Of a stretch of 64,000 nt of DNA, positions 11,371-57,710 are shown piece after piece (within the stretch, counting starts at the first letter, position 1; each line of letters begins with the position of its first letter). The translations under genes were made by a program, and so were the position numbers. Source of the DNA: a virus (lineage: Duplodnaviria; Caudoviricetes); IMG/VR virus record IMGVR_UViG_3300037418_002332. One strand, 5' to 3'. The notes beneath the pieces are model-generated. The model saw only the letters and a program-made list of their open reading frames with translations. It was not told where the DNA came from and ran no database searches.

Positions 11371-11817
11371 ATGCGTAGATTTCCAAAACCAAAACCATTC
11401 AAGCCAAAGAACCCATCCAAGTATGTTGGTGATGTACATAAAATCATATGTAGATCAGGTATTGAACTGCGTTACATGAAATATTTCGATGAAACAACAG
11501 CAGTGACCAAATGGGCATCTGAAAAAATAGTCATACCATATGTCAATCCATTGGATGGTCAAGTACATCGATATTTCCCTGACTTCATGGTACAAATATT
11601 GACGAAAGGTCAGAAAAGAAACTATTTGATTGAAATCAAATCAAGTGGTGATACTGTTCAACCAGTCAAAGGTAAAAGAGCCAGTAAAACGTTTATCACT
11701 GAACAGGCAACATGGTCAGTCAATAATGCCAAATGGAAAGCAGCCAAAGCATTTTGTGCCAAACATAATATGACATTCATGGTGCTCACAGAGAAGGAAA
11801 TCAAATTCAAGTTCTAG
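11371..11817 (+). CDS. gp4: Head completion nuclease gp4
   Basis: FKPKNPSKYVGD...I.RS..E...M.YFD....V..WASE...IPY..P.DG.VHRYFPDF...IEIK...VN.AKW.AA..FC (TnsA-like nuclease). Confidence 0.92.
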   Translation: MRRFPKPKPFKPKNPSKYVGDVHKIICRSGIELRYMKYFDETTAVTKWASEKIVIPYVNPLDGQVHRYFPDFMVQILTKGQKRNYLIEIKSSGDTVQPVKGKRASKTFITEQATWSVNNAKWKAAKAFCAKHNMTFMVLTEKEIKFKF

Positions 11818-11851: not shown

Positions 11852-12460
11852 GTGGTCGCCAAAGCAAAACCCAAAAACTCTCGAACTTTTGATTACATCT
11901 TGTCTGAAGGTGTAAGAAAAGGACTTGCTCCAGCCAAAACACAGGAAGCCAGAAATTGGTTTCGACAAAAAGCAAAATCAACTCTTGCTACACCATCCAG
12001 TTTGATTCGTGAAGATAGAGAAAGACTTCAAACACAAATCAAAATTGGTGAAATGTATCATTTCTTCTATGATCCAAAACATAAGAAAGAATTGCCATAC
12101 TATGACAGTTTCCCATTGATTTTCAAAATTGAAGAATATTCAGATCGCTTTCTCGGTATCAACCTGCATTATTTGCCATTACCATTGCGTGCCAAATTGA
12201 TGGATGCGTTGTATTCATTGTCAACTAACACAAGATATGATGAAAAGACAAAACTCAAAATTTCATATCAAATTCTCAAGGCAGCATCCAAGTACAAATG
12301 GTTCAAACCGTGTATTAAGATGTACTTGAAATCGCATGTTAAAAGCAGATTCATGAAAGTATATGCAACTGAGTGGGACATTGCTCTGTTCTTACCAACA
12401 GAAAGCTTCAACAAAGCATCCAAACAAAAAGTTTGGAGAGATTCAAGGGAATCAGTATAA
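11852..12460 (+). CDS. gp2: DNA end protector protein gp2
   Basis: ARNWFR...GEMYHFFYDPKHK..LPYYD.FPL...F.GINLHYLP...R..L...PCIK.YL..HV.S. Start taken as GTG 11852 after AGGA; TTG 11846 is the alternative. Confidence 0.9.
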   Translation: MVAKAKPKNSRTFDYILSEGVRKGLAPAKTQEARNWFRQKAKSTLATPSSLIREDRERLQTQIKIGEMYHFFYDPKHKKELPYYDSFPLIFKIEEYSDRFLGINLHYLPLPLRAKLMDALYSLSTNTRYDEKTKLKISYQILKAASKYKWFKPCIKMYLKSHVKSRFMKVYATEWDIALFLPTESFNKASKQKVWRDSRESV

Positions 12461-13008
12461 TGCCATTCAACATTAACGAATTCGTGTCTGAATTGAATGC
12501 AAATGGAGTTGCGAAACTTTCCAATTTCGATGTCATCATCAACGGACCTGCTGGTATTCAAGATGTTGGTGTTGAACGTTCAATTCAAATGAGATGTTTT
12601 GTAGTTGATTTGCCAGGCAGACGTGTAGAAACTGGTGGTGCTATTGTGTATGGTCCTCCAAGAAAAATAGCAACCAATTCTATCTTTGATGAAATTACAT
12701 TACAAATAATTTTGTCTGAGGATATGGCAGAACGTGAATACTTTGAAACATGGTTTGACAAAATTGTTGGCAACTACAGAAATTTGCAATCTGATCCAAA
12801 TATGTACGATGTTGGATTCTATGATGATTATATTGGTACAGTTGAAATTACCAATTATTCTGAATCAGGAGACGTAATTCATCGAACAAAATTGATTGAA
12901 GCATACCCACTGAATATTGGCGCTGAGTCATTATCATGGGAACAAGGAAATCAATTGATGATACTTCCAGTGACCATGTATTATAAACATTACAAAAATG
13001 AAAACTAA
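12460..13008 (+). CDS. gp54: Baseplate tail-tube initiator gp54 (gp19-like fold)
   Basis: ATG overlaps the gp2 stop (TAATG); G.AK.S.F.V.I...C....LPGR...F.EITL...ERE.FE.W...LIEAYP.NIG. Confidence 0.75.
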   Translation: MPFNINEFVSELNANGVAKLSNFDVIINGPAGIQDVGVERSIQMRCFVVDLPGRRVETGGAIVYGPPRKIATNSIFDEITLQIILSEDMAEREYFETWFDKIVGNYRNLQSDPNMYDVGFYDDYIGTVEITNYSESGDVIHRTKLIEAYPLNIGAESLSWEQGNQLMILPVTMYYKHYKNEN

Positions 13009-13019
13009 GGAGTTATAAT

Positions 13020-13721
13020 TTGCTGCCTGTACTTAACATTGCGAAACAACAAATAACAGTCCCATTTGTTAACAAAACATATACCATTAGACCATACCTT
13101 GTTGGTGAAGAAAAAGGCCTGATGATGTCTCTTGAATCAAGAGACGACGTTCAAATTGCTAAAGCAATCAAAAATCTGATTGTATCATGTGTGGAAGAGA
13201 AAATCAATATCGATGATCTATCCACATTTGAAACTGAATACATTTTCCTTCAACTTAGAATTATGTCAGTCAGTAACATTTCAGAAGTTGGATTTGGTCA
13301 TCAACATTCCACAGAATGTCAACATATCCAAAAAGTCACTATCGATCTAAACCAAATACAAATTGATGGTAAGATTGATAACAAAGTTTTATTGGATGAA
13401 GAATCAGGCATCGGTGTTATGTTAACCATGCCATCCAATAAGACCTTGGCTAAGAAATACAATACTGAAACTGAAAAAGTATTTGGATTGATTCAGGATA
13501 GTATTCAAGCAATTTATGATAAACAATCAGTGTATTACACCAAGGATGTAGCTCCTGATGAGTTGACATCTTGGATCAACAACCTAAATAATTCGCAAAT
13601 GCGCAAAATTGCTGATTTCTTCAGTGATTTGCCAACCATGAATTACGATATCAAGTACAAATGTGAAAAATGTGGCGAAATTGAAGAGTTCAAAGTAACA
13701 GGATTGTCCAATTTTTTATAA
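13020..13721 (+). CDS. gp26: Baseplate hub assembly chaperone, gp26-like
   Basis: LP.LN...RPYLVGEEK.L...FE.EYIFLQLR..SV...YDIKYKCEKC...GLSNF; TTG start after AAGGAG. Confidence 0.82.
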   Translation: MLPVLNIAKQQITVPFVNKTYTIRPYLVGEEKGLMMSLESRDDVQIAKAIKNLIVSCVEEKINIDDLSTFETEYIFLQLRIMSVSNISEVGFGHQHSTECQHIQKVTIDLNQIQIDGKIDNKVLLDEESGIGVMLTMPSNKTLAKKYNTETEKVFGLIQDSIQAIYDKQSVYYTKDVAPDELTSWINNLNNSQMRKIADFFSDLPTMNYDIKYKCEKCGEIEEFKVTGLSNFL

Positions 13722-13942
13722 TATGTCTTAGTCATGAAAGCTTGAAAAATTATTACATGACCAATTTTACGCTGATGTATGATTTGAAAAAAGACATTAC
13801 ACAATGGGACAACTTCATGCCGTTCGAAAAGCAGATCTACTTGGAAATGATCATGCAAAGGCTTGAATCTGAAAGTAAAAATAACAATAAGAACAATAAC
13901 ATGTCCTCTATTCCAACGGAGGATGAATTCAGAGGCAGATAA
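13712..13942 (+). CDS. gp51-like hub assembly segment, probably expressed as a -1 frameshift extension of gp26
   Basis: The -1 frame from TTTTTTA reads FFIICLSHESLKNYYMTNFTLMY...MPFEKQIYLEM. The family-like LSHESL segment lies upstream of the only usable starts (TTG 13742, ATG 13757), and neither has an SD. Confidence 0.7.
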   Translation, partial: FFIICLSHESLKNYYMTNFTLMYDLKKDITQWDNFMPFEKQIYLEMIMQRLESESKNNNKNNNMSSIPTEDEFRGR

Positions 13943-14380
13943 ATGGTAGACAAAAGAACGGATACTCAAAAGAAGAACGACGACAGATTTGCAAATAGAC
14001 GCAAAATGGCATTTTGGTCATTGTATGCTGTCCTATTGGTTACACTGAGCGTTACAGTCAAAATTCTCATTGCTCCAGCACTTGATGTTGGTCAATATTC
14101 AATCATTCTGAACTGGTCACTATCAATTCTTGGTGGTGTTGTATTGGCATTTATTGGTGCTGCGTCAGTTGAACAAATCAAAACTCCTCTTATTGGTAAT
14201 GACTCAACTGTTGTACTTGGACAAGATGAAAGATTGGTCAAAGCAGCTGATGCTCCAGTAGATAATGGTTCACCCGATCCACAATCAAATTGGACACCAA
14301 CTGAAGATGATACTGACCCTGAAGTATCAGTAGCCAAAAGAAGAAACTATCAAGAACCTGAAGAACTTCAAGGCAACTAA
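13943..14380 (+). CDS. Two-TM membrane protein (holin-like)
   Basis: Basic NRRKMAFW followed by two hydrophobic helices (SLYAVLLVTLSVTVKILIA; IILNWSLSILGGVVLAFIGAA) and an acidic tail. Confidence 0.5.
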   Translation: MVDKRTDTQKKNDDRFANRRKMAFWSLYAVLLVTLSVTVKILIAPALDVGQYSIILNWSLSILGGVVLAFIGAASVEQIKTPLIGNDSTVVLGQDERLVKAADAPVDNGSPDPQSNWTPTEDDTDPEVSVAKRRNYQEPEELQGN

Positions 14381-16458
14381 TGGCAAATGATTTTGACTAC
14401 ACTAATCTGATCAAATCACTGTATTTGGCAGGTGTTAGTGAAGATGAAATTGCAAAACAGTTCAAGTTAACGAGAGCTGTTGTTAATCAATTCATTCAAA
14501 AAATCAAAGCAACGCAGCAGCCAACAACACCTGCGGCTCCTGCTATTCCTGCTCCTGCATCCACACCATTACCAAAAATCAATGCAAATATTCAAGTGAA
14601 TGGTGTTGTTCAAAAAGGACCATCAATTGCTGTTATTGACGATGAAAGTATAAAGAAAATCGTGAATGCGTCAACTCAAGCATTCAGCACTTCAAAATCA
14701 TATCAACATACAATTCAACCAACTGCTGGTAAAAAGATCGATGATCAGGACTTTAGCAGTTTTTTCAGTGGTTACAAAACTGATACTATGAACATCTTCA
14801 CTAAGATGGCTAAAACACTTGAGGATTTGTTGAAGTCATTTGAAAAAAGTGAAGCTCGTATTAATCAACAAGGCAAAAAGCAAGACGCTAAAGATCAACG
14901 CGATAGACTTGACAAAATTGAAGAAGATCGTGAAAAGCCAAATAGAAAAAATGATGAACAAGATGGTTGGTTTGAAAAAATCAAAAATTTGATAAGAACT
15001 GGAGCAGGTGGCGTTGGAGGCGCATTATCAAATCCATCATCTGTAGTTGATTTTGCCAAGAATCAATTTTTGGGTACAGCATTAGGTGCATTTGCTGGTA
15101 ATGTTGTCAGAAGTCCATTCAAAACTGTTGGTGGATTGCTCAAAAATCCATGGTTGTTAGCAGCGTTGGCAGCAGGCAATGAAGCATGGCGATCTGCTGG
15201 ACAAACAGATTATAAACCTGACCCAACTTCACACAATACTGATGACGAAAATTATTTGGGCAGATTTTTAGCTGGTAATGGAAGCAAAGATTGGACTGAC
15301 AGAATTCAACATTATGCAGGTCTTGCTGGTACAGGTTTCTTGGCTGGTGGTGCAGGCGGTTCAGTTATTGGTGGTGTTGGTGCAATTCCTGGTGCAATAT
15401 TGGGTGGACTTGGTGGACTTGGTGTGGCAGCTGGTGGTGAATTGATTGGTCAAGATGCAATGGCAAACATAGTTGGTGCAGTAAAAGCTGGTGCATCAAA
15501 TGTTACTCCTGGTATGTTCATGGGGGTCAGAAGTGGCGACATTGGTATAAGTGAGGATAGAGCAGACCGTCTCCGTAAAGAAATTGCAGAAACTGATGTA
15601 GATATCAAAGCCAAAAATAAAAAGATGGATGGCATTATGGATGCCATGGCTAAATTGAGACTACAAGTTGATGACGCAAACAAACGTGGTGATAAAGCTG
15701 GTGCAGCTGCACTTCAAGCTCAAATGGATGCATTGAGCAGTGAAGGTGGTCAAACACAAATTGCTATCGGTGCTGCCCAAAAGAAAAGAGATTGGTCTTC
15801 ACAAGATTTGGATAGAGGCATACGTGAAAATGCTGCACAAACAGGTGCAGATATTGGTGGTGACATTTTAACTAATGTATTGAAAAAGAAACATGAAAAG
15901 GCAATGGGTGAACTTGGTGCTCAAGTTGGTAAACTTGTTGGACCAAAGATTGATCCAAATATTCCACTTGATCCGGGGATCAATGCACAAAAGATGAAAG
16001 TTTTACAAGGTTCAATCTATGCACCTGTTGGACAATTTTTGGATGATGCCAAATCAAGTATCGAAAGCATTTTCAATTGGGACAATTTTTTGAAAACATG
16101 GTACAGTGGAAGTCCTGAAGCTTACAACAAGATAGCACCTGCAGGTGCACAATTACCTGTTGATCCTTCCAAACCACATATTACCATGGAATCATATTTG
16201 AAATCTAAGGAAGAAAATAAAGGTTGGTTGTCCAATTTGTTTACATCAACTGAAAAGCCAAAGACAAAATCAATTCAAGAAATGGCTCGTGATGCAAATC
16301 AAGGCAGTAACGCATTTGGACAAATGCTTGGTGCTATGTCAAATATTCAAAATCAAAATACAAGTGTTAATAACACTGTCAATAACAAAACTGTGGTCGC
16401 TAGACCACCACTCGCAACCGATCAAAACTTCGGTGGATATGGAAGGGGAGGGTTCTAA
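14380..16458 (+). CDS. Tape-measure / tail-length determinator-like protein (gp29-like)
   Basis: 692 aa after gp26/51; coiled-coil segments, a Gly/Ala-rich hydrophobic stretch and an Asn/Thr-rich C-terminus (NTSVNNTVNN). Confidence 0.6.
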   Translation: MANDFDYTNLIKSLYLAGVSEDEIAKQFKLTRAVVNQFIQKIKATQQPTTPAAPAIPAPASTPLPKINANIQVNGVVQKGPSIAVIDDESIKKIVNASTQAFSTSKSYQHTIQPTAGKKIDDQDFSSFFSGYKTDTMNIFTKMAKTLEDLLKSFEKSEARINQQGKKQDAKDQRDRLDKIEEDREKPNRKNDEQDGWFEKIKNLIRTGAGGVGGALSNPSSVVDFAKNQFLGTALGAFAGNVVRSPFKTVGGLLKNPWLLAALAAGNEAWRSAGQTDYKPDPTSHNTDDENYLGRFLAGNGSKDWTDRIQHYAGLAGTGFLAGGAGGSVIGGVGAIPGAILGGLGGLGVAAGGELIGQDAMANIVGAVKAGASNVTPGMFMGVRSGDIGISEDRADRLRKEIAETDVDIKAKNKKMDGIMDAMAKLRLQVDDANKRGDKAGAAALQAQMDALSSEGGQTQIAIGAAQKKRDWSSQDLDRGIRENAAQTGADIGGDILTNVLKKKHEKAMGELGAQVGKLVGPKIDPNIPLDPGINAQKMKVLQGSIYAPVGQFLDDAKSSIESIFNWDNFLKTWYSGSPEAYNKIAPAGAQLPVDPSKPHITMESYLKSKEENKGWLSNLFTSTEKPKTKSIQEMARDANQGSNAFGQMLGAMSNIQNQNTSVNNTVNNKTVVARPPLATDQNFGGYGRGGF

Positions 16459-41678: not shown

Positions 41679-41771
41679 GGTCACGTAATTCTTTTTTCTA
41701 TGTATTTAATTTTACTATGTATTTTCTTCGACAACTGTTTAATCTATACTATGCCAAAATTGGAGATAACT

Positions 41772-42200
41772 ATGCATCTATCTGACTATCAAAATGAATG
41801 GAAAAACGATGCCAAAATCGTAAGTGATGCGCTTGATTCAGAATCATTGAACATCCCTGTACTTCATTCTAAATATTTGACATATCTGTCAAACGAACGC
41901 CGACTGTATAAAAAATTAGCGATAACCAAGGAATCAAAAATTGTCACCCTGACTGATTATTATTCAGGAGTGATTGATGGGAGAGACATTGGTCGTCAAC
42001 CATGGGCAATTCGTGAAGGAAGCAAAGCTTCGGTTCAAAAACGAGTTGAGGGTGACGCAGAAATTTTGAAAATTCAGAATGTGCTAGATGAAAAAGAAGA
42101 GATTGTTTTGTTCTTGAAAGAAGTGATTATCTCAATCAACCAAAGAAATTTCATAATCAAAAATGCAATTGACTACATGAGGTGGTCACAGGGAAATTAA
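41772..42200 (+). CDS. uvsY: Recombination mediator UvsY
   Basis: W..D..I...LD.ES..IP.LHSKY...YYSG...K......D..I......L..I..R...IKNAID..RW..G; start set at ATG 41772 after GGAG. Confidence 0.9.
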   Translation: MHLSDYQNEWKNDAKIVSDALDSESLNIPVLHSKYLTYLSNERRLYKKLAITKESKIVTLTDYYSGVIDGRDIGRQPWAIREGSKASVQKRVEGDAEILKIQNVLDEKEEIVLFLKEVIISINQRNFIIKNAIDYMRWSQGN

Positions 42201-55178: not shown

Positions 55179-57710
55179 TTGTTCTATACAAATATTGAAC
55201 GTGCAGGTAATAACATCCTGACTCGTGGTTATGATGATCAAGGCAAACTGTTCTTTCACAAAGATGAAGACTTTAAGCCTAGAGTCTATATTCCCGCCAA
55301 TTCCGTTAATGCCAAATACAAAAGTCTGAAGGGGCAAGCTCTTGAGGCAGTTCAAGCTGGTTCACTTTCCGAAACAAAAGAATTCATTGATCGATACAAA
55401 AATGTAGATAATTTTGAAGTTTTTGGTCAAGAAAACTGGATTTCCAACTACATAGTTGACAAGTATCCAGGGAAAATTGATTACAACTATGATTTGATCA
55501 ATCTTGCATTTTTCGACATTGAAACCACGTGTGAAGAAGGCTTCCCAAATGTTGAGACAGCCAATGAAGAAATTTTGATCATTTCATTCTGGAACCGTGG
55601 TACATATTACATTTTCTCAACTGAACGTTATGGTAAATTCGTAACGGATAAACCAAATATTGTATCAGAAACTTTTCCAACTGAAGAACTCATGCTTCAT
55701 GCTGTTGTTGACTTTTGGTCAAAGATGGCATTCGACATCGTATCCGGTTGGTATTCTGACTTCTTTGATATTCCATATGTTGTAAACCGTATCAACCGAA
55801 TTCTTGGTAAAGACAAGACCAAGAAGCTTTCGCCATGGGGCATGATTCGTGATTTGACTATCCCAACTTTGAAAGGTGACCAAAAGTCATACACAATTGT
55901 TGGTGTTAATCATATCGACTACATGGCAGCTTACAAAAAGTTCTCTGGTGTTCAACTTGAAAATATGAAACTGGATACAGTTGGTAACCATGAACTTGGT
56001 TTGAAAAAGCTTGACTATTCAGAATTTGAATCAATGCGTGAGTTGTATCAAAAGGACTTTCAAAAGTTCTGCGAATACAACTTGAGAGACAACGAAATCC
56101 TAGTTGGTGTTGAAAAGAAACGTAACATCATCAAGATGATTGTCAGCCTTGCTTTGAACGCAAAGGTGAACATGGTTGACACTTTCAAGCAAACTGTGAT
56201 GTGGGATAATATCTTCTACAATCACTTGCTTGAGAAGAATATCATCGTCCCAAGAAAAGAAAAGCATGCAAACAGCGCTCCTATTCCTGGTGGTTTCGTT
56301 CGTGAAGTAAATCCAGGAATGTTCAAGTGGATCGTTTCACTTGACCTTGACTCACTGTATCCTCACTTGATCATGGGTACAAATATCAGTCCTGAAACTT
56401 ACAAAGGCATTTTCCAAGTTGATATTGAAGATTTGGCAAAAGGCAAAGATATCGACTTGCTTCGCTATTGTAAAAAAGAGAACTATGCGTTGGCCGGAAA
56501 CGGTGCAATGTTCGATAGATCAATTCGTGGGTTCATTCCTGAACTCATGGACGTCATGTATAAAGAACGTAAACAGTTCAAGTCTGAAATGTTGAAGACA
56601 CGTGATTATCTTGAAACTAATCGTGCAAATTTGTCAAAGGAAGAAATCAAGAAACTGGAAGATGAAATCTCCAGACTTGACATGTTCCAAAACGTTCGTA
56701 AGATTCAGCTGAACTCAGCCTATGGTTCATTGGCTCAGATCGGATTTAGGTTCTTTCAATATGAGTTGGCTTGTGCAATTACTTTGACAGGTCAAACAAC
56801 GTTGAAATGGGCAGTTCGTAAGTTGAATGAATTCATGAACAAAATCCTTTCAACTAAGGATGTTGATTATGTGTTGGCGGCTGATACCGACTCAATCCAC
56901 TTGAACTTTGAGCCTATTGTGAAACAGTATCAGTCTAAAAAGCCTGATGCTACACGTGAAGATATTACCAACTTCATCGACAAAATTGTTCAAAATAAGT
57001 TTCAACCATTCCTTGATGCAATTTATGAGGAACTGGCTGAATATTTGAATTCATATGAACAAAAGATGAAAATGAAACGCGAAAACATCGTTGATGTGGG
57101 AGTGTATTTGGCCAAAAAGAAATATATTTACAACGTGCTCGACTCAGAAGGCACTCGATATGCTGACCCAAAGTTGAAGGTCATGGGCCTTGAACTGGTT
57201 AAGTCAAACACTCCAGCTTTCTGTAGAAAGAAAATGAAGGAAGCTTGTAAAATCGTACTTGAAAAAAGTGAATCAGATTTAATCAAGTTCATTGAGGAAA
57301 CCAAAAAGGAATTCATGAAGTTGCCATTTGAGGATATCGCTTATCCTCAAGGTGTAAATCACATTTCCAAATACACTGATGCTTCTGGTGATTATGTCAA
57401 AGGAACTCAGATTTATGCGCGCGGCTCTATCATTTACAACAATTTGTTGAAAAAGAAGGGACTGACTAAGAAATATGAAACCATTGGTGATGGTGATAAA
57501 ATCAAGTATTGTTACTTGAAAATGCCAAATCCAATTTTTGAGAATATCATCAGCGTTCCATTTGCACTTCCGAAGGAACTTGGTCTTCATGAATATGTTG
57601 ACTATGAAACTCAATTTGAAAAAACTTTCATGAGTGCAATCGGACGTATTTGTGCAGCCGTGAACTGGCAATTGACAAAAGTTGATTCATTGGAGGATTT
57701 TTTCAATTGA
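55179..57710 (+). CDS. gp43: Family B DNA polymerase gp43
   Basis: FFDIET (Exo I), W.SDFFDIPY, DLDSLYPH.I...NISPET, K..LNS.YG, DTDS, KK.Y, K..GLE..KS.TP; uninterrupted 843 aa. Confidence 0.97.
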   Translation: MFYTNIERAGNNILTRGYDDQGKLFFHKDEDFKPRVYIPANSVNAKYKSLKGQALEAVQAGSLSETKEFIDRYKNVDNFEVFGQENWISNYIVDKYPGKIDYNYDLINLAFFDIETTCEEGFPNVETANEEILIISFWNRGTYYIFSTERYGKFVTDKPNIVSETFPTEELMLHAVVDFWSKMAFDIVSGWYSDFFDIPYVVNRINRILGKDKTKKLSPWGMIRDLTIPTLKGDQKSYTIVGVNHIDYMAAYKKFSGVQLENMKLDTVGNHELGLKKLDYSEFESMRELYQKDFQKFCEYNLRDNEILVGVEKKRNIIKMIVSLALNAKVNMVDTFKQTVMWDNIFYNHLLEKNIIVPRKEKHANSAPIPGGFVREVNPGMFKWIVSLDLDSLYPHLIMGTNISPETYKGIFQVDIEDLAKGKDIDLLRYCKKENYALAGNGAMFDRSIRGFIPELMDVMYKERKQFKSEMLKTRDYLETNRANLSKEEIKKLEDEISRLDMFQNVRKIQLNSAYGSLAQIGFRFFQYELACAITLTGQTTLKWAVRKLNEFMNKILSTKDVDYVLAADTDSIHLNFEPIVKQYQSKKPDATREDITNFIDKIVQNKFQPFLDAIYEELAEYLNSYEQKMKMKRENIVDVGVYLAKKKYIYNVLDSEGTRYADPKLKVMGLELVKSNTPAFCRKKMKEACKIVLEKSESDLIKFIEETKKEFMKLPFEDIAYPQGVNHISKYTDASGDYVKGTQIYARGSIIYNNLLKKKGLTKKYETIGDGDKIKYCYLKMPNPIFENIISVPFALPKELGLHEYVDYETQFEKTFMSAIGRICAAVNWQLTKVDSLEDFFN

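Follow-up and report, generated by a model that had tools for sequence, protein, structure and literature searches.

In the window, by which we mean the whole stretch of 64,000 nucleotides of phage DNA analysed here, a gp26-like gene very probably makes both a short and a long protein through a slip on a conserved UUUUUUA run, as judged from comparison of sequences. We propose that this gene, at 13020-13721, encodes a tail/baseplate-hub assembly chaperone with two products. Most ribosomes would stop at the TAA at 13719 and release a short form of 233 residues. A minority would slip back by one base on U UUU UUA at 13712-13718 and read 13718-13939 in the -1 frame, giving a long form of 307 residues with the junction ...GLSNFL-IICLSHES.... 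The 74-residue C-terminal extension of the long form would then be the 'gp51' module, and the short and long pair would correspond to gp26 and gp51 of T4 and, by analogy, to gpG and gpGT of lambda. If the roles follow the lambda model, the part common to both forms may hold the tape-measure protein and the extension may recruit tube or hub proteins.

It is very likely, in our judgement, that the fusion is made by some form of recoding at the T run, and likely that this recoding is a ribosomal -1 frameshift that makes the long form of the chaperone. A preliminary description of this DNA had put forward gp26 and a gp26-51 fusion as a G/GT-type pair produced by -1 frameshifting, and that reading is supported by the conservation of the heptamer, coding selection in the -1 frame, the lack of an SD at the downstream starts, the architecture of T4 gp51, the loss of the heptamer beside separate gp51 genes and a probable chaperone-like fold. 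The comparisons mark the feature as real, well supported and a further instance of an arrangement already published.

The gp26-like gene, its neighbours and the heptamer

The source record is the 247-kb, 97%-complete genome of an uncultured T4-like phage from soil/rhizosphere metagenomes, and all the features described here lie on the + strand. The putative short form of the chaperone is encoded in the 0 frame at 13020..13721, from a TTG start with the SD TAAGGAG. Its 233-residue product matches PF12322 (T4_baseplate) over residues 12-233 (2.5e-46, 158.6 bits against a cut-off of 24.5) and phrog_150 (6.9e-48). This gene is the only copy of PF12322 in the genome which, given its completeness, argues that there is no separate long form. 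A blastn search of the region against the phage collection returned no match, and no relatives of the protein were found among viral contigs with the protein itself as query; no phage in the collection searched is more than 35% identical to the source phage.

The last codons of the open reading frame are GGA TTG TCC AAT TTT TTA TAA. Direct reading places the heptamer T TTT TTA (U UUU UUA) at 13712..13718 in the X XXY YYZ phase, with the 0-frame stop TAA directly 3' of it at 13719..13721, a possible 'shifty stop' context. A TGA at 13682-13684 closes the -1 frame, which is then open from 13685 until it meets the TAA at 13940-13942. Between 13685 and the TTG at 13742 this frame contains neither ATG nor GTG nor TTG, leaving it without a start codon for 19 codons, and the next start is the ATG at 13757. 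From the slip site the -1 frame reads FFIICLSHESLKNYYMTNF... and continues for 74 codons plus TAA (13718..13942), the predicted C-terminus of a long form of 233+74 = 307 residues. In the same frame a gene caller would place an ORF of 66 residues with a TTG start (13742..13942), which represents the rival, independently initiated 'gp51'. Re-reading of the window found every coordinate in the preliminary description to be correct, and confirmed the in-phase TTTTTTA at 13712-13718 with its adjoining TAA, the closure of the -1 frame, the absence of a start codon before the heptamer, the F-F-I-I-C-L-S-H-E-S reading and the predicted sizes of 233 and 307 residues.

The -1 frame matches phrog_634 ('baseplate hub assembly catalyst'), and the strength of the match depends on where the reading begins. 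Started at ATG13757 the score is 37.5 bits, at TTG13742 it is 44.8, at 13718 it is 54.8 and at 13685 it reaches 61.8; from 13685 or 13718 the match covers phrog_634 positions 49-119 (1.4e-16). Because the score climbs with upstream extension, the homology reaches the slip site and is truncated by either start codon. The suggestion that the gp51-like signature begins right at the slip site is thus borne out by the rise from 37.5 to 61.8 bits. The junction DNA is identical, with zero indels, in contigs from three sequencing runs, two of which are not listed among the possible sources of the window DNA. Neither the T6 run nor the relation between the frames is therefore an assembly error.

We also modelled the 233-residue protein with AlphaFold2 from 28 sequences (pLDDT 89.3, pTM 0.83). 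The top two fold matches for model residues 1-86 were 3KLU, which is B. subtilis YqbN (Z 7.8, rmsd 3.4, 84 aligned), and 2OB9_A, the tail assembly chaperone (TAC) of HK97 (Z 7.8, rmsd 3.9, 83 aligned), both with a Z below 8 and so in the warning range of the tool; the next unrelated row stood at Z 4.1. For the same N-terminal domain Foldseek returned a probability of 0.98 but an E-value of 0.15. The model would be supportive of a TAC-like fold for residues 1-86, at a level of similarity that falls in the grey zone.

Directly upstream of the chaperone gene is a tail-tube-family gene (12373..13008; phrog_45, 1.2e-32), for whose orthologues in relatives PF23849 (Phage_TTP_2) is recorded. On the other side an ORF of 145 residues (13943..14380), which matches no Pfam or PHROG family, stands between the chaperone and a large gene; a small gene at this place is also found in DLP_6, Cr30 and phiM19. 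The large gene (14380..16458) encodes a Gly-rich protein of 692 residues and is a probable tape-measure gene from its position, size and composition. The syntenic gene in Cr30 is annotated as tape measure, and an Atlas feature search offered, as a lead only, a T4_Tape_measure cluster at 0.87. The 692-residue product gave no match to Pfam, PHROG or TMP-family HMMs and no BLASTP similarity to T4 gp29, and PF25671 matches nowhere in the genome. The earlier claim of a tape-measure-like gene one ORF downstream consequently stands as regards position, size and composition and does not extend to a TMP HMM match; with the Atlas lead and the position of the gene, we consider a tape-measure function plausible.

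Conservation of the junction among relatives

Four contigs with 54-61% amino acid identity are the close relatives of the window, which together with them forms a clade of five members. The gene order common to the four is gp53, gp48-like, TnsA-like, gp2, tube, gp26, extension, small ORF, large ORF and gp32, and in two of them the 'gp51' ORF had been missed by the gene callers. The sequence AAT TTT TTA TAA is unchanged in all four. From the slip site to the first start the -1 frame has eight codons, which spell IICLSHES, IIGLSHES or IIGLSHGS; most of the nucleotide differences in these 24 nt leave the -1 residue unchanged (ATA/ATT, CTT/CTA, AGC/AGT and, for serine, a switch from AGT to TCT). 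No frame other than -1 is coding here in the close relatives. With the 0 frame already ended, this mostly synonymous variation indicates coding selection in the -1 frame on a stretch where no ribosome could start.

The distant relatives comprised 80 IMG/VR loci, obtained with the P-HM2 protein as query and showing 91-40% identity to that protein and about 25-30% to the one in the window; DLP_6, P-HM2 and Aeh1 were added, giving 82 distinct junctions. All 82 carry T TTT TT(C/A) in phase, with an entropy of zero at the six T positions and only C or A at heptamer position 7 across these cyanophage-type junctions. The codon before the T run is GAT, AGT, AAT, GCT or TCT, so that four amino acids are encoded and the final T is constant, and the flanking codons are free. 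The -1 peptide of these phages, 60-69 residues long, is conserved from its first residues (FF-R/S-I-A/G-L-S/F-H-E/D...), and immediately past the 0-frame stop the variation in the -1 frame has a period of three, with entropies of 0.50/0.51/1.37 at the three codon positions. An alignment of gp26/gp51 junctions across T4-like phages had been proposed as a check on the frameshift, and it found the in-phase heptamer and the -1 relation kept at 82/82 distant and 4/4 close junctions. Throughout the five-member clade of the window the 0-frame stop adjoins the heptamer, and in other clades it comes one or two codons later. We observed the same arrangement in Cr30, phiM19, LPCS28 and ACP17, where the heptamer is T TTT TTT or T TTT TTC. 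In Vibrio phage D532 and Klebsiella phage May the -1 ORF is present and the T6 heptamer is absent, so that the mechanism does not extend to the whole family.

T4 itself provides an informative comparison. The 0-frame protein of the window belongs to the same PF12322 family as T4 gp26, and identity to the T4 proteins is about 20%. T4 has two separate genes and no heptamer, whereas the window has one gene and a predicted recoding event; T4 genes 26 and 51 are divergently transcribed, making a fusion impossible there. T4 gp51 (249 residues) is made up of a PF12322 domain (residues 1-201, 3.9e-52) and a phrog_634 module (residues 147-246, 1.2e-23). As far as domain matches go, this architecture is exactly what the predicted frameshift would create in the window, with the same order of PF12322 domain and phrog_634 extension and a colinear alignment. 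When eleven predicted fusions were aligned with five stand-alone gp51 proteins (T4, RB69, Ac42, avDM1 and GAP161), the junction was free of gaps.

The same five phages, all Straboviridae with a separate gp51, served as controls; they were taken from annotated records because a T4 gp26 query in the viral contigs returned seven near-identical loci. The heptamer is absent from gp26 in all five. The E-F-F residues are kept in T4 (GAG TTC TTT) and RB69 (GAA TTC TTT) and have diverged in the other three. This loss suggests that the heptamer persists in phages whose long form depends on it and is lost by decay in those with a separate gene for that form. From these sequences it appears that recoding was swapped for gene duplication in the course of evolution, with the slippery site decaying once it was unneeded, and the decay of the heptamer beside a separate gp51 amounts to a clean natural control.

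Signals around the heptamer and alternative explanations

Two candidate stimulators had been pointed out near the slip site. The SD-like AGGA at 13700..13703, 8 nt upstream of the heptamer, is present as described, and its proposed stimulatory role is unsupported, with a moderate anti-SD duplex of -4.1 kcal/mol and a Gly codon, the one forming the AGGA, that varies among relatives (GGA/GGT/GGG/GGC); the E/Q-G codons keep the stretch purine-rich in these phages. The weak stem GTCATG...CATGAC at 13731..13761 (arms 13731-13736 and 13756-13761) is likewise present and likewise unsupported as a signal. The 60 nt after the heptamer have a minimum free energy of -5.0 kcal/mol, against a mean of -6.4 (s.d. 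2.3) for shuffles, and so no extra stability, and no covariation of the stem was found among relatives, where it is invariant apart from being broken in one close contig (L087). A search of Rfam over 13500-14100 returned nothing at E <= 1. Only in a single sub-group of cyanophages, with 32 sequences, was a convincing hairpin seen (GCCCUC/GAGGGC, 5 nt after the heptamer). We infer the ribosomal nature of the shift and also its efficiency, which may be low given the lack of downstream RNA structure and of a conserved SD-like AGGA. The efficiency of the lambda G/GT frameshift is itself low. It is possible that the adjoining stop codon, which is specific to the window's clade, helps slippage, by analogy with the classical 'shifty stop' observations.

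The same 307-residue fusion would also be made if RNA polymerase added one U at the T6 run in some of the mRNAs. All of the support for a fusion product fits this transcriptional slippage equally well, the conserved element being a homopolymer run that extends to T7 in Cr30 and phiM19, and no RNA structure of the kind that usually accompanies efficient ribosomal -1 shifting was detected downstream. Six Ts are, however, short for the process, as in bacteria a run of some 8-9 or more is usually required for efficient transcriptional slippage. Position 7, where a T would make the run longer, is also never T in the 82 junctions, although the -1 residue constrains this position as well. In addition, ribosomal shifting is the route reported for those tail assembly chaperones that have been studied in other phages (Xu, Hendrix and Duda 2004, as cited in PMC10885494). 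We therefore regard transcriptional slippage as quite unlikely, though it is the main alternative to a ribosomal shift. It is unlikely more broadly that the long form comes either from RNA polymerase stuttering on the T6/T7 run or, in the window's clade, from a termination-coupled P-site slip with UAA in the A site; in each case the mechanism of the T4-like pair would depart from the lambda G/GT paradigm.

A further explanation dispenses with recoding, and takes 'gp51' to be an independent protein of 61-66 residues that starts at TTG 13742 or ATG 13757, perhaps by reinitiation after the TAA at 13719. In the clade of the window each of the five members does have a TTG or ATG as -1 codon 10, making some free 66-residue peptide possible, and database records carry separate small gp51 genes; Vibrio phage D532, which is without the heptamer, has a TAATG overlap of stop and start. 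Against this, neither start in the window has an SD. The anti-SD duplex is +0.4 kcal/mol at TTG13742 and -0.1 at ATG13757, set against a median of -5.4 for the 48 long ORFs of the window, -1.0 at random positions, -8.6 at the gp26 start and -5.8 at the start of the next gene, bearing out what had been said of these two codons. The residues from the slip site to codon 10 are conserved at the level of protein, with synonymous changes. The start is not conserved either, as the first -1 start codon of the distant relatives may be found anywhere from codon 5 to codon 34 and the annotated -1 ORF ranges from 60 residues in DLP_6 and 30 in P-HM2 to none in Aeh1, LPCS28 and ACP17. Independent initiation would also leave unexplained the invariant heptamer, its loss beside a separate full-length gp51 and the fused architecture of T4 gp51, and we think it very unlikely. 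The non-canonical starts ATT 13703 and ATA 13718 were also weighed and rejected: F-F is followed by CGN, AGN or ATA according to clade, and no start-like codon is conserved.

The bare pattern, an XXXYYYZ in phase at the end of an ORF with a long -1 ORF after it, is found in 3/90 long ORFs of the window; the two cases besides gp26 are genes that overlap in the ordinary way and have good SDs. Within the window alone the heptamer is thus not above chance, and it is the comparative data that lift it far above chance. That the T run merely encodes an x-F-F/L C-terminal motif in T-biased genes, with an unrelated -1 ORF behind it, fits this count and the codon usage of these genes (TTT accounts for 71% of the codons for Phe, and GAT for 77% of those for Asp) but is extremely improbable, since T4 and RB69 keep F-F with TTC TTT, the window gene elsewhere uses TTT:TTC 4:4 and AAT:AAC 7:7, the five different preceding codons all end in T, and the -1 peptide is homologous to, and contiguous with, the C-terminus of T4 gp51.

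Relation to known tail assembly chaperones

The preliminary description held the frameshift to be undescribed in the T4 superfamily. This is not borne out, as it was published by Vladimirov, Gautam and Davidson in 2022 (Virology 566:9-15). According to papers that cite their work (PMC10885494, PMC12846349), gp26 and gp51 are the TACs of T4-like phages, poly-T slippery sequences lie at the end of the 'TAC-N' genes in T4-like phages, and T4 and some of its relatives carry two genes instead. The window shares with that system, as relayed there, the gp26/gp51 family and the idea of a short and a long chaperone, and differs in its U UUU UUA variant, in the adjoining stop and in its source, an uncultured 247-kb soil/rhizosphere phage. 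With the principle in print since 2022, the gain from the present window is modest.

The arrangement is also that of the lambda gpG/gpGT type, with overlapping 0 and -1 ORFs, an in-phase heptamer near the end of the first ORF and, apparently, the same place between a tube gene and a putative tape-measure gene. The lambda frameshift was reportedly described by Levin, Hendrix and Casjens in 1993, and Xu, Hendrix and Duda are said to have found the -1 frameshift of tail assembly chaperone genes to be conserved in 2004. P2 E/E+E' is a further case of -1 frameshifting among tail chaperones. The modelled N-terminal domain of the window protein appears similar in fold to the HK97 TAC. In contrast, there is no sequence similarity to lambda-type TACs, and the window protein is larger (233 residues against about 140), with an extra C-terminal domain that carries Cys pairs. 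Unlike in lambda, the TMP-like gene is separated from the chaperone by one small ORF, the slippery sequence reads U UUU UUA in place of G GGA AAG, and tails of the T4 type assemble on a complex baseplate hub.

The preliminary description had likened U UUU UUA to the slippery site of HIV-1 gag-pol, and we agree, the two heptamers being identical. In E. coli dnaX (A AAA AAG) an SD-like element lies upstream of the slippery site, and the AGGA 8 nt upstream in the window is a conceivable counterpart. The window differs from HIV-1 and dnaX in that no downstream stem-loop or pseudoknot is detectable and the SD-like element is not conserved; its context is bacterial and the 0-frame stop adjoins the site.

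The predicted long form ties the long-puzzling gp26/gp51 pair of T4 to the universal logic of short and long tail chaperones. It would also correct the annotation of these genomes, in which a free 'baseplate hub assembly catalyst' of 30-66 residues, or nothing, is recorded where a long chaperone form of about 300 residues is most likely made. A joined CDS was annotated in 0/12 of the GenBank records with the arrangement that we sampled, and one GenBank record names gp51 'tape measure protein assembly chaperone'.

Expression and annotation of the extension in relatives

The −1 extension, the gp51-like reading frame that would be fused to the gp26-like chaperone by slippage, is missing or shortened in several published phage records (coordinates for relatives are those within each locus compared). 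The conserved extension was left unannotated in Aeh1 (L003, 2232-2414), LPCS28 (L092, 1366-1545) and ACP17 (L094, 1408-1580), and in the P-HM2 record (L002, 2181-2375) it was called at 30 aa only. None of the published phage records sampled contained a joined or slipped CDS for gp26/gp51.

Downstream of the heptamer, we observed a GCCCUC(N6)GAGGGC hairpin in 32 cyanophage-type junctions, all from one sub-group (L006-L038 and similar loci). The hairpin begins 5 nt past the heptamer, in the stretch 5-23 nt beyond it, with an alifold energy of -11.6 kcal/mol, and is missing both from the other cyanophage-type sub-group and from the clade formed by the window and its four close relatives. A stimulator specific to this lineage is one possible reading; the other is that the hairpin simply follows from the A-L and E-G codons at this position.

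In two junctions the T6 heptamer is absent, yet the −1 frame downstream of gp26 holds a gp51-like ORF. In Vibrio phage D532 (L093, 1400-1650) the stop and start codons overlap as TAATG, which raises the question of whether this is ordinary coupling. In Klebsiella phage May (Ackermannviridae; L095, 1470-1700) the junction reads ...GAG ATT TTC ATT TAA, and the first start codons in the −1 frame are a GTG ATG pair ~14-15 codons beyond the gp26 stop. The gp26/gp51 family may have more than one route to expressing the extension. The Cronobacter phage GAP161 (L106, 1301-2594) encodes gp51 as a long form of 247 aa and gp26 as a short form of 185 aa, adjoining in tandem on the same strand, whereas the two genes are divergent in T4. 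The GAP161 arrangement appears to be an intermediate form in the organisation of the duplicated pair.

Other in-phase heptamers in the window

A second in-phase heptamer, T TTT TTC, lies within 57689-57710, near the 3' end of an 843-aa ORF (55179-57710). The next gene starts at a TTG (57707) that overlaps the stop and is preceded by a well-spaced GGAGG; the site looks like normal coupling of two genes and not like recoding. At the end of ORF 41700-42200, within 42189-42200, there is an in-phase G GGA AAT, and the −1 frame contains an ORF of 497 aa. This is an ordinary overlap, given the GAGGTGG Shine-Dalgarno sequence and the start codons close by.

Genes near the chaperone

Directly upstream of the gp2 DNA-end-protector gene is a 148-aa gene (11371-11817), whose orthologues in four relatives carry PF08722, the N-terminal domain of Tn7 TnsA-like endonucleases, an unusual neighbour for a T4-like tail module. 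Between the chaperone and the tape-measure-like gene sits a 145-aa ORF (13943-14380) that had no family match and carries a long hydrophobic segment. The same slot holds a small gene in DLP_6 (148 aa), phiM19 (139 aa) and Cr30 (82 aa), and one of 102-129 aa in the close relatives of the window.
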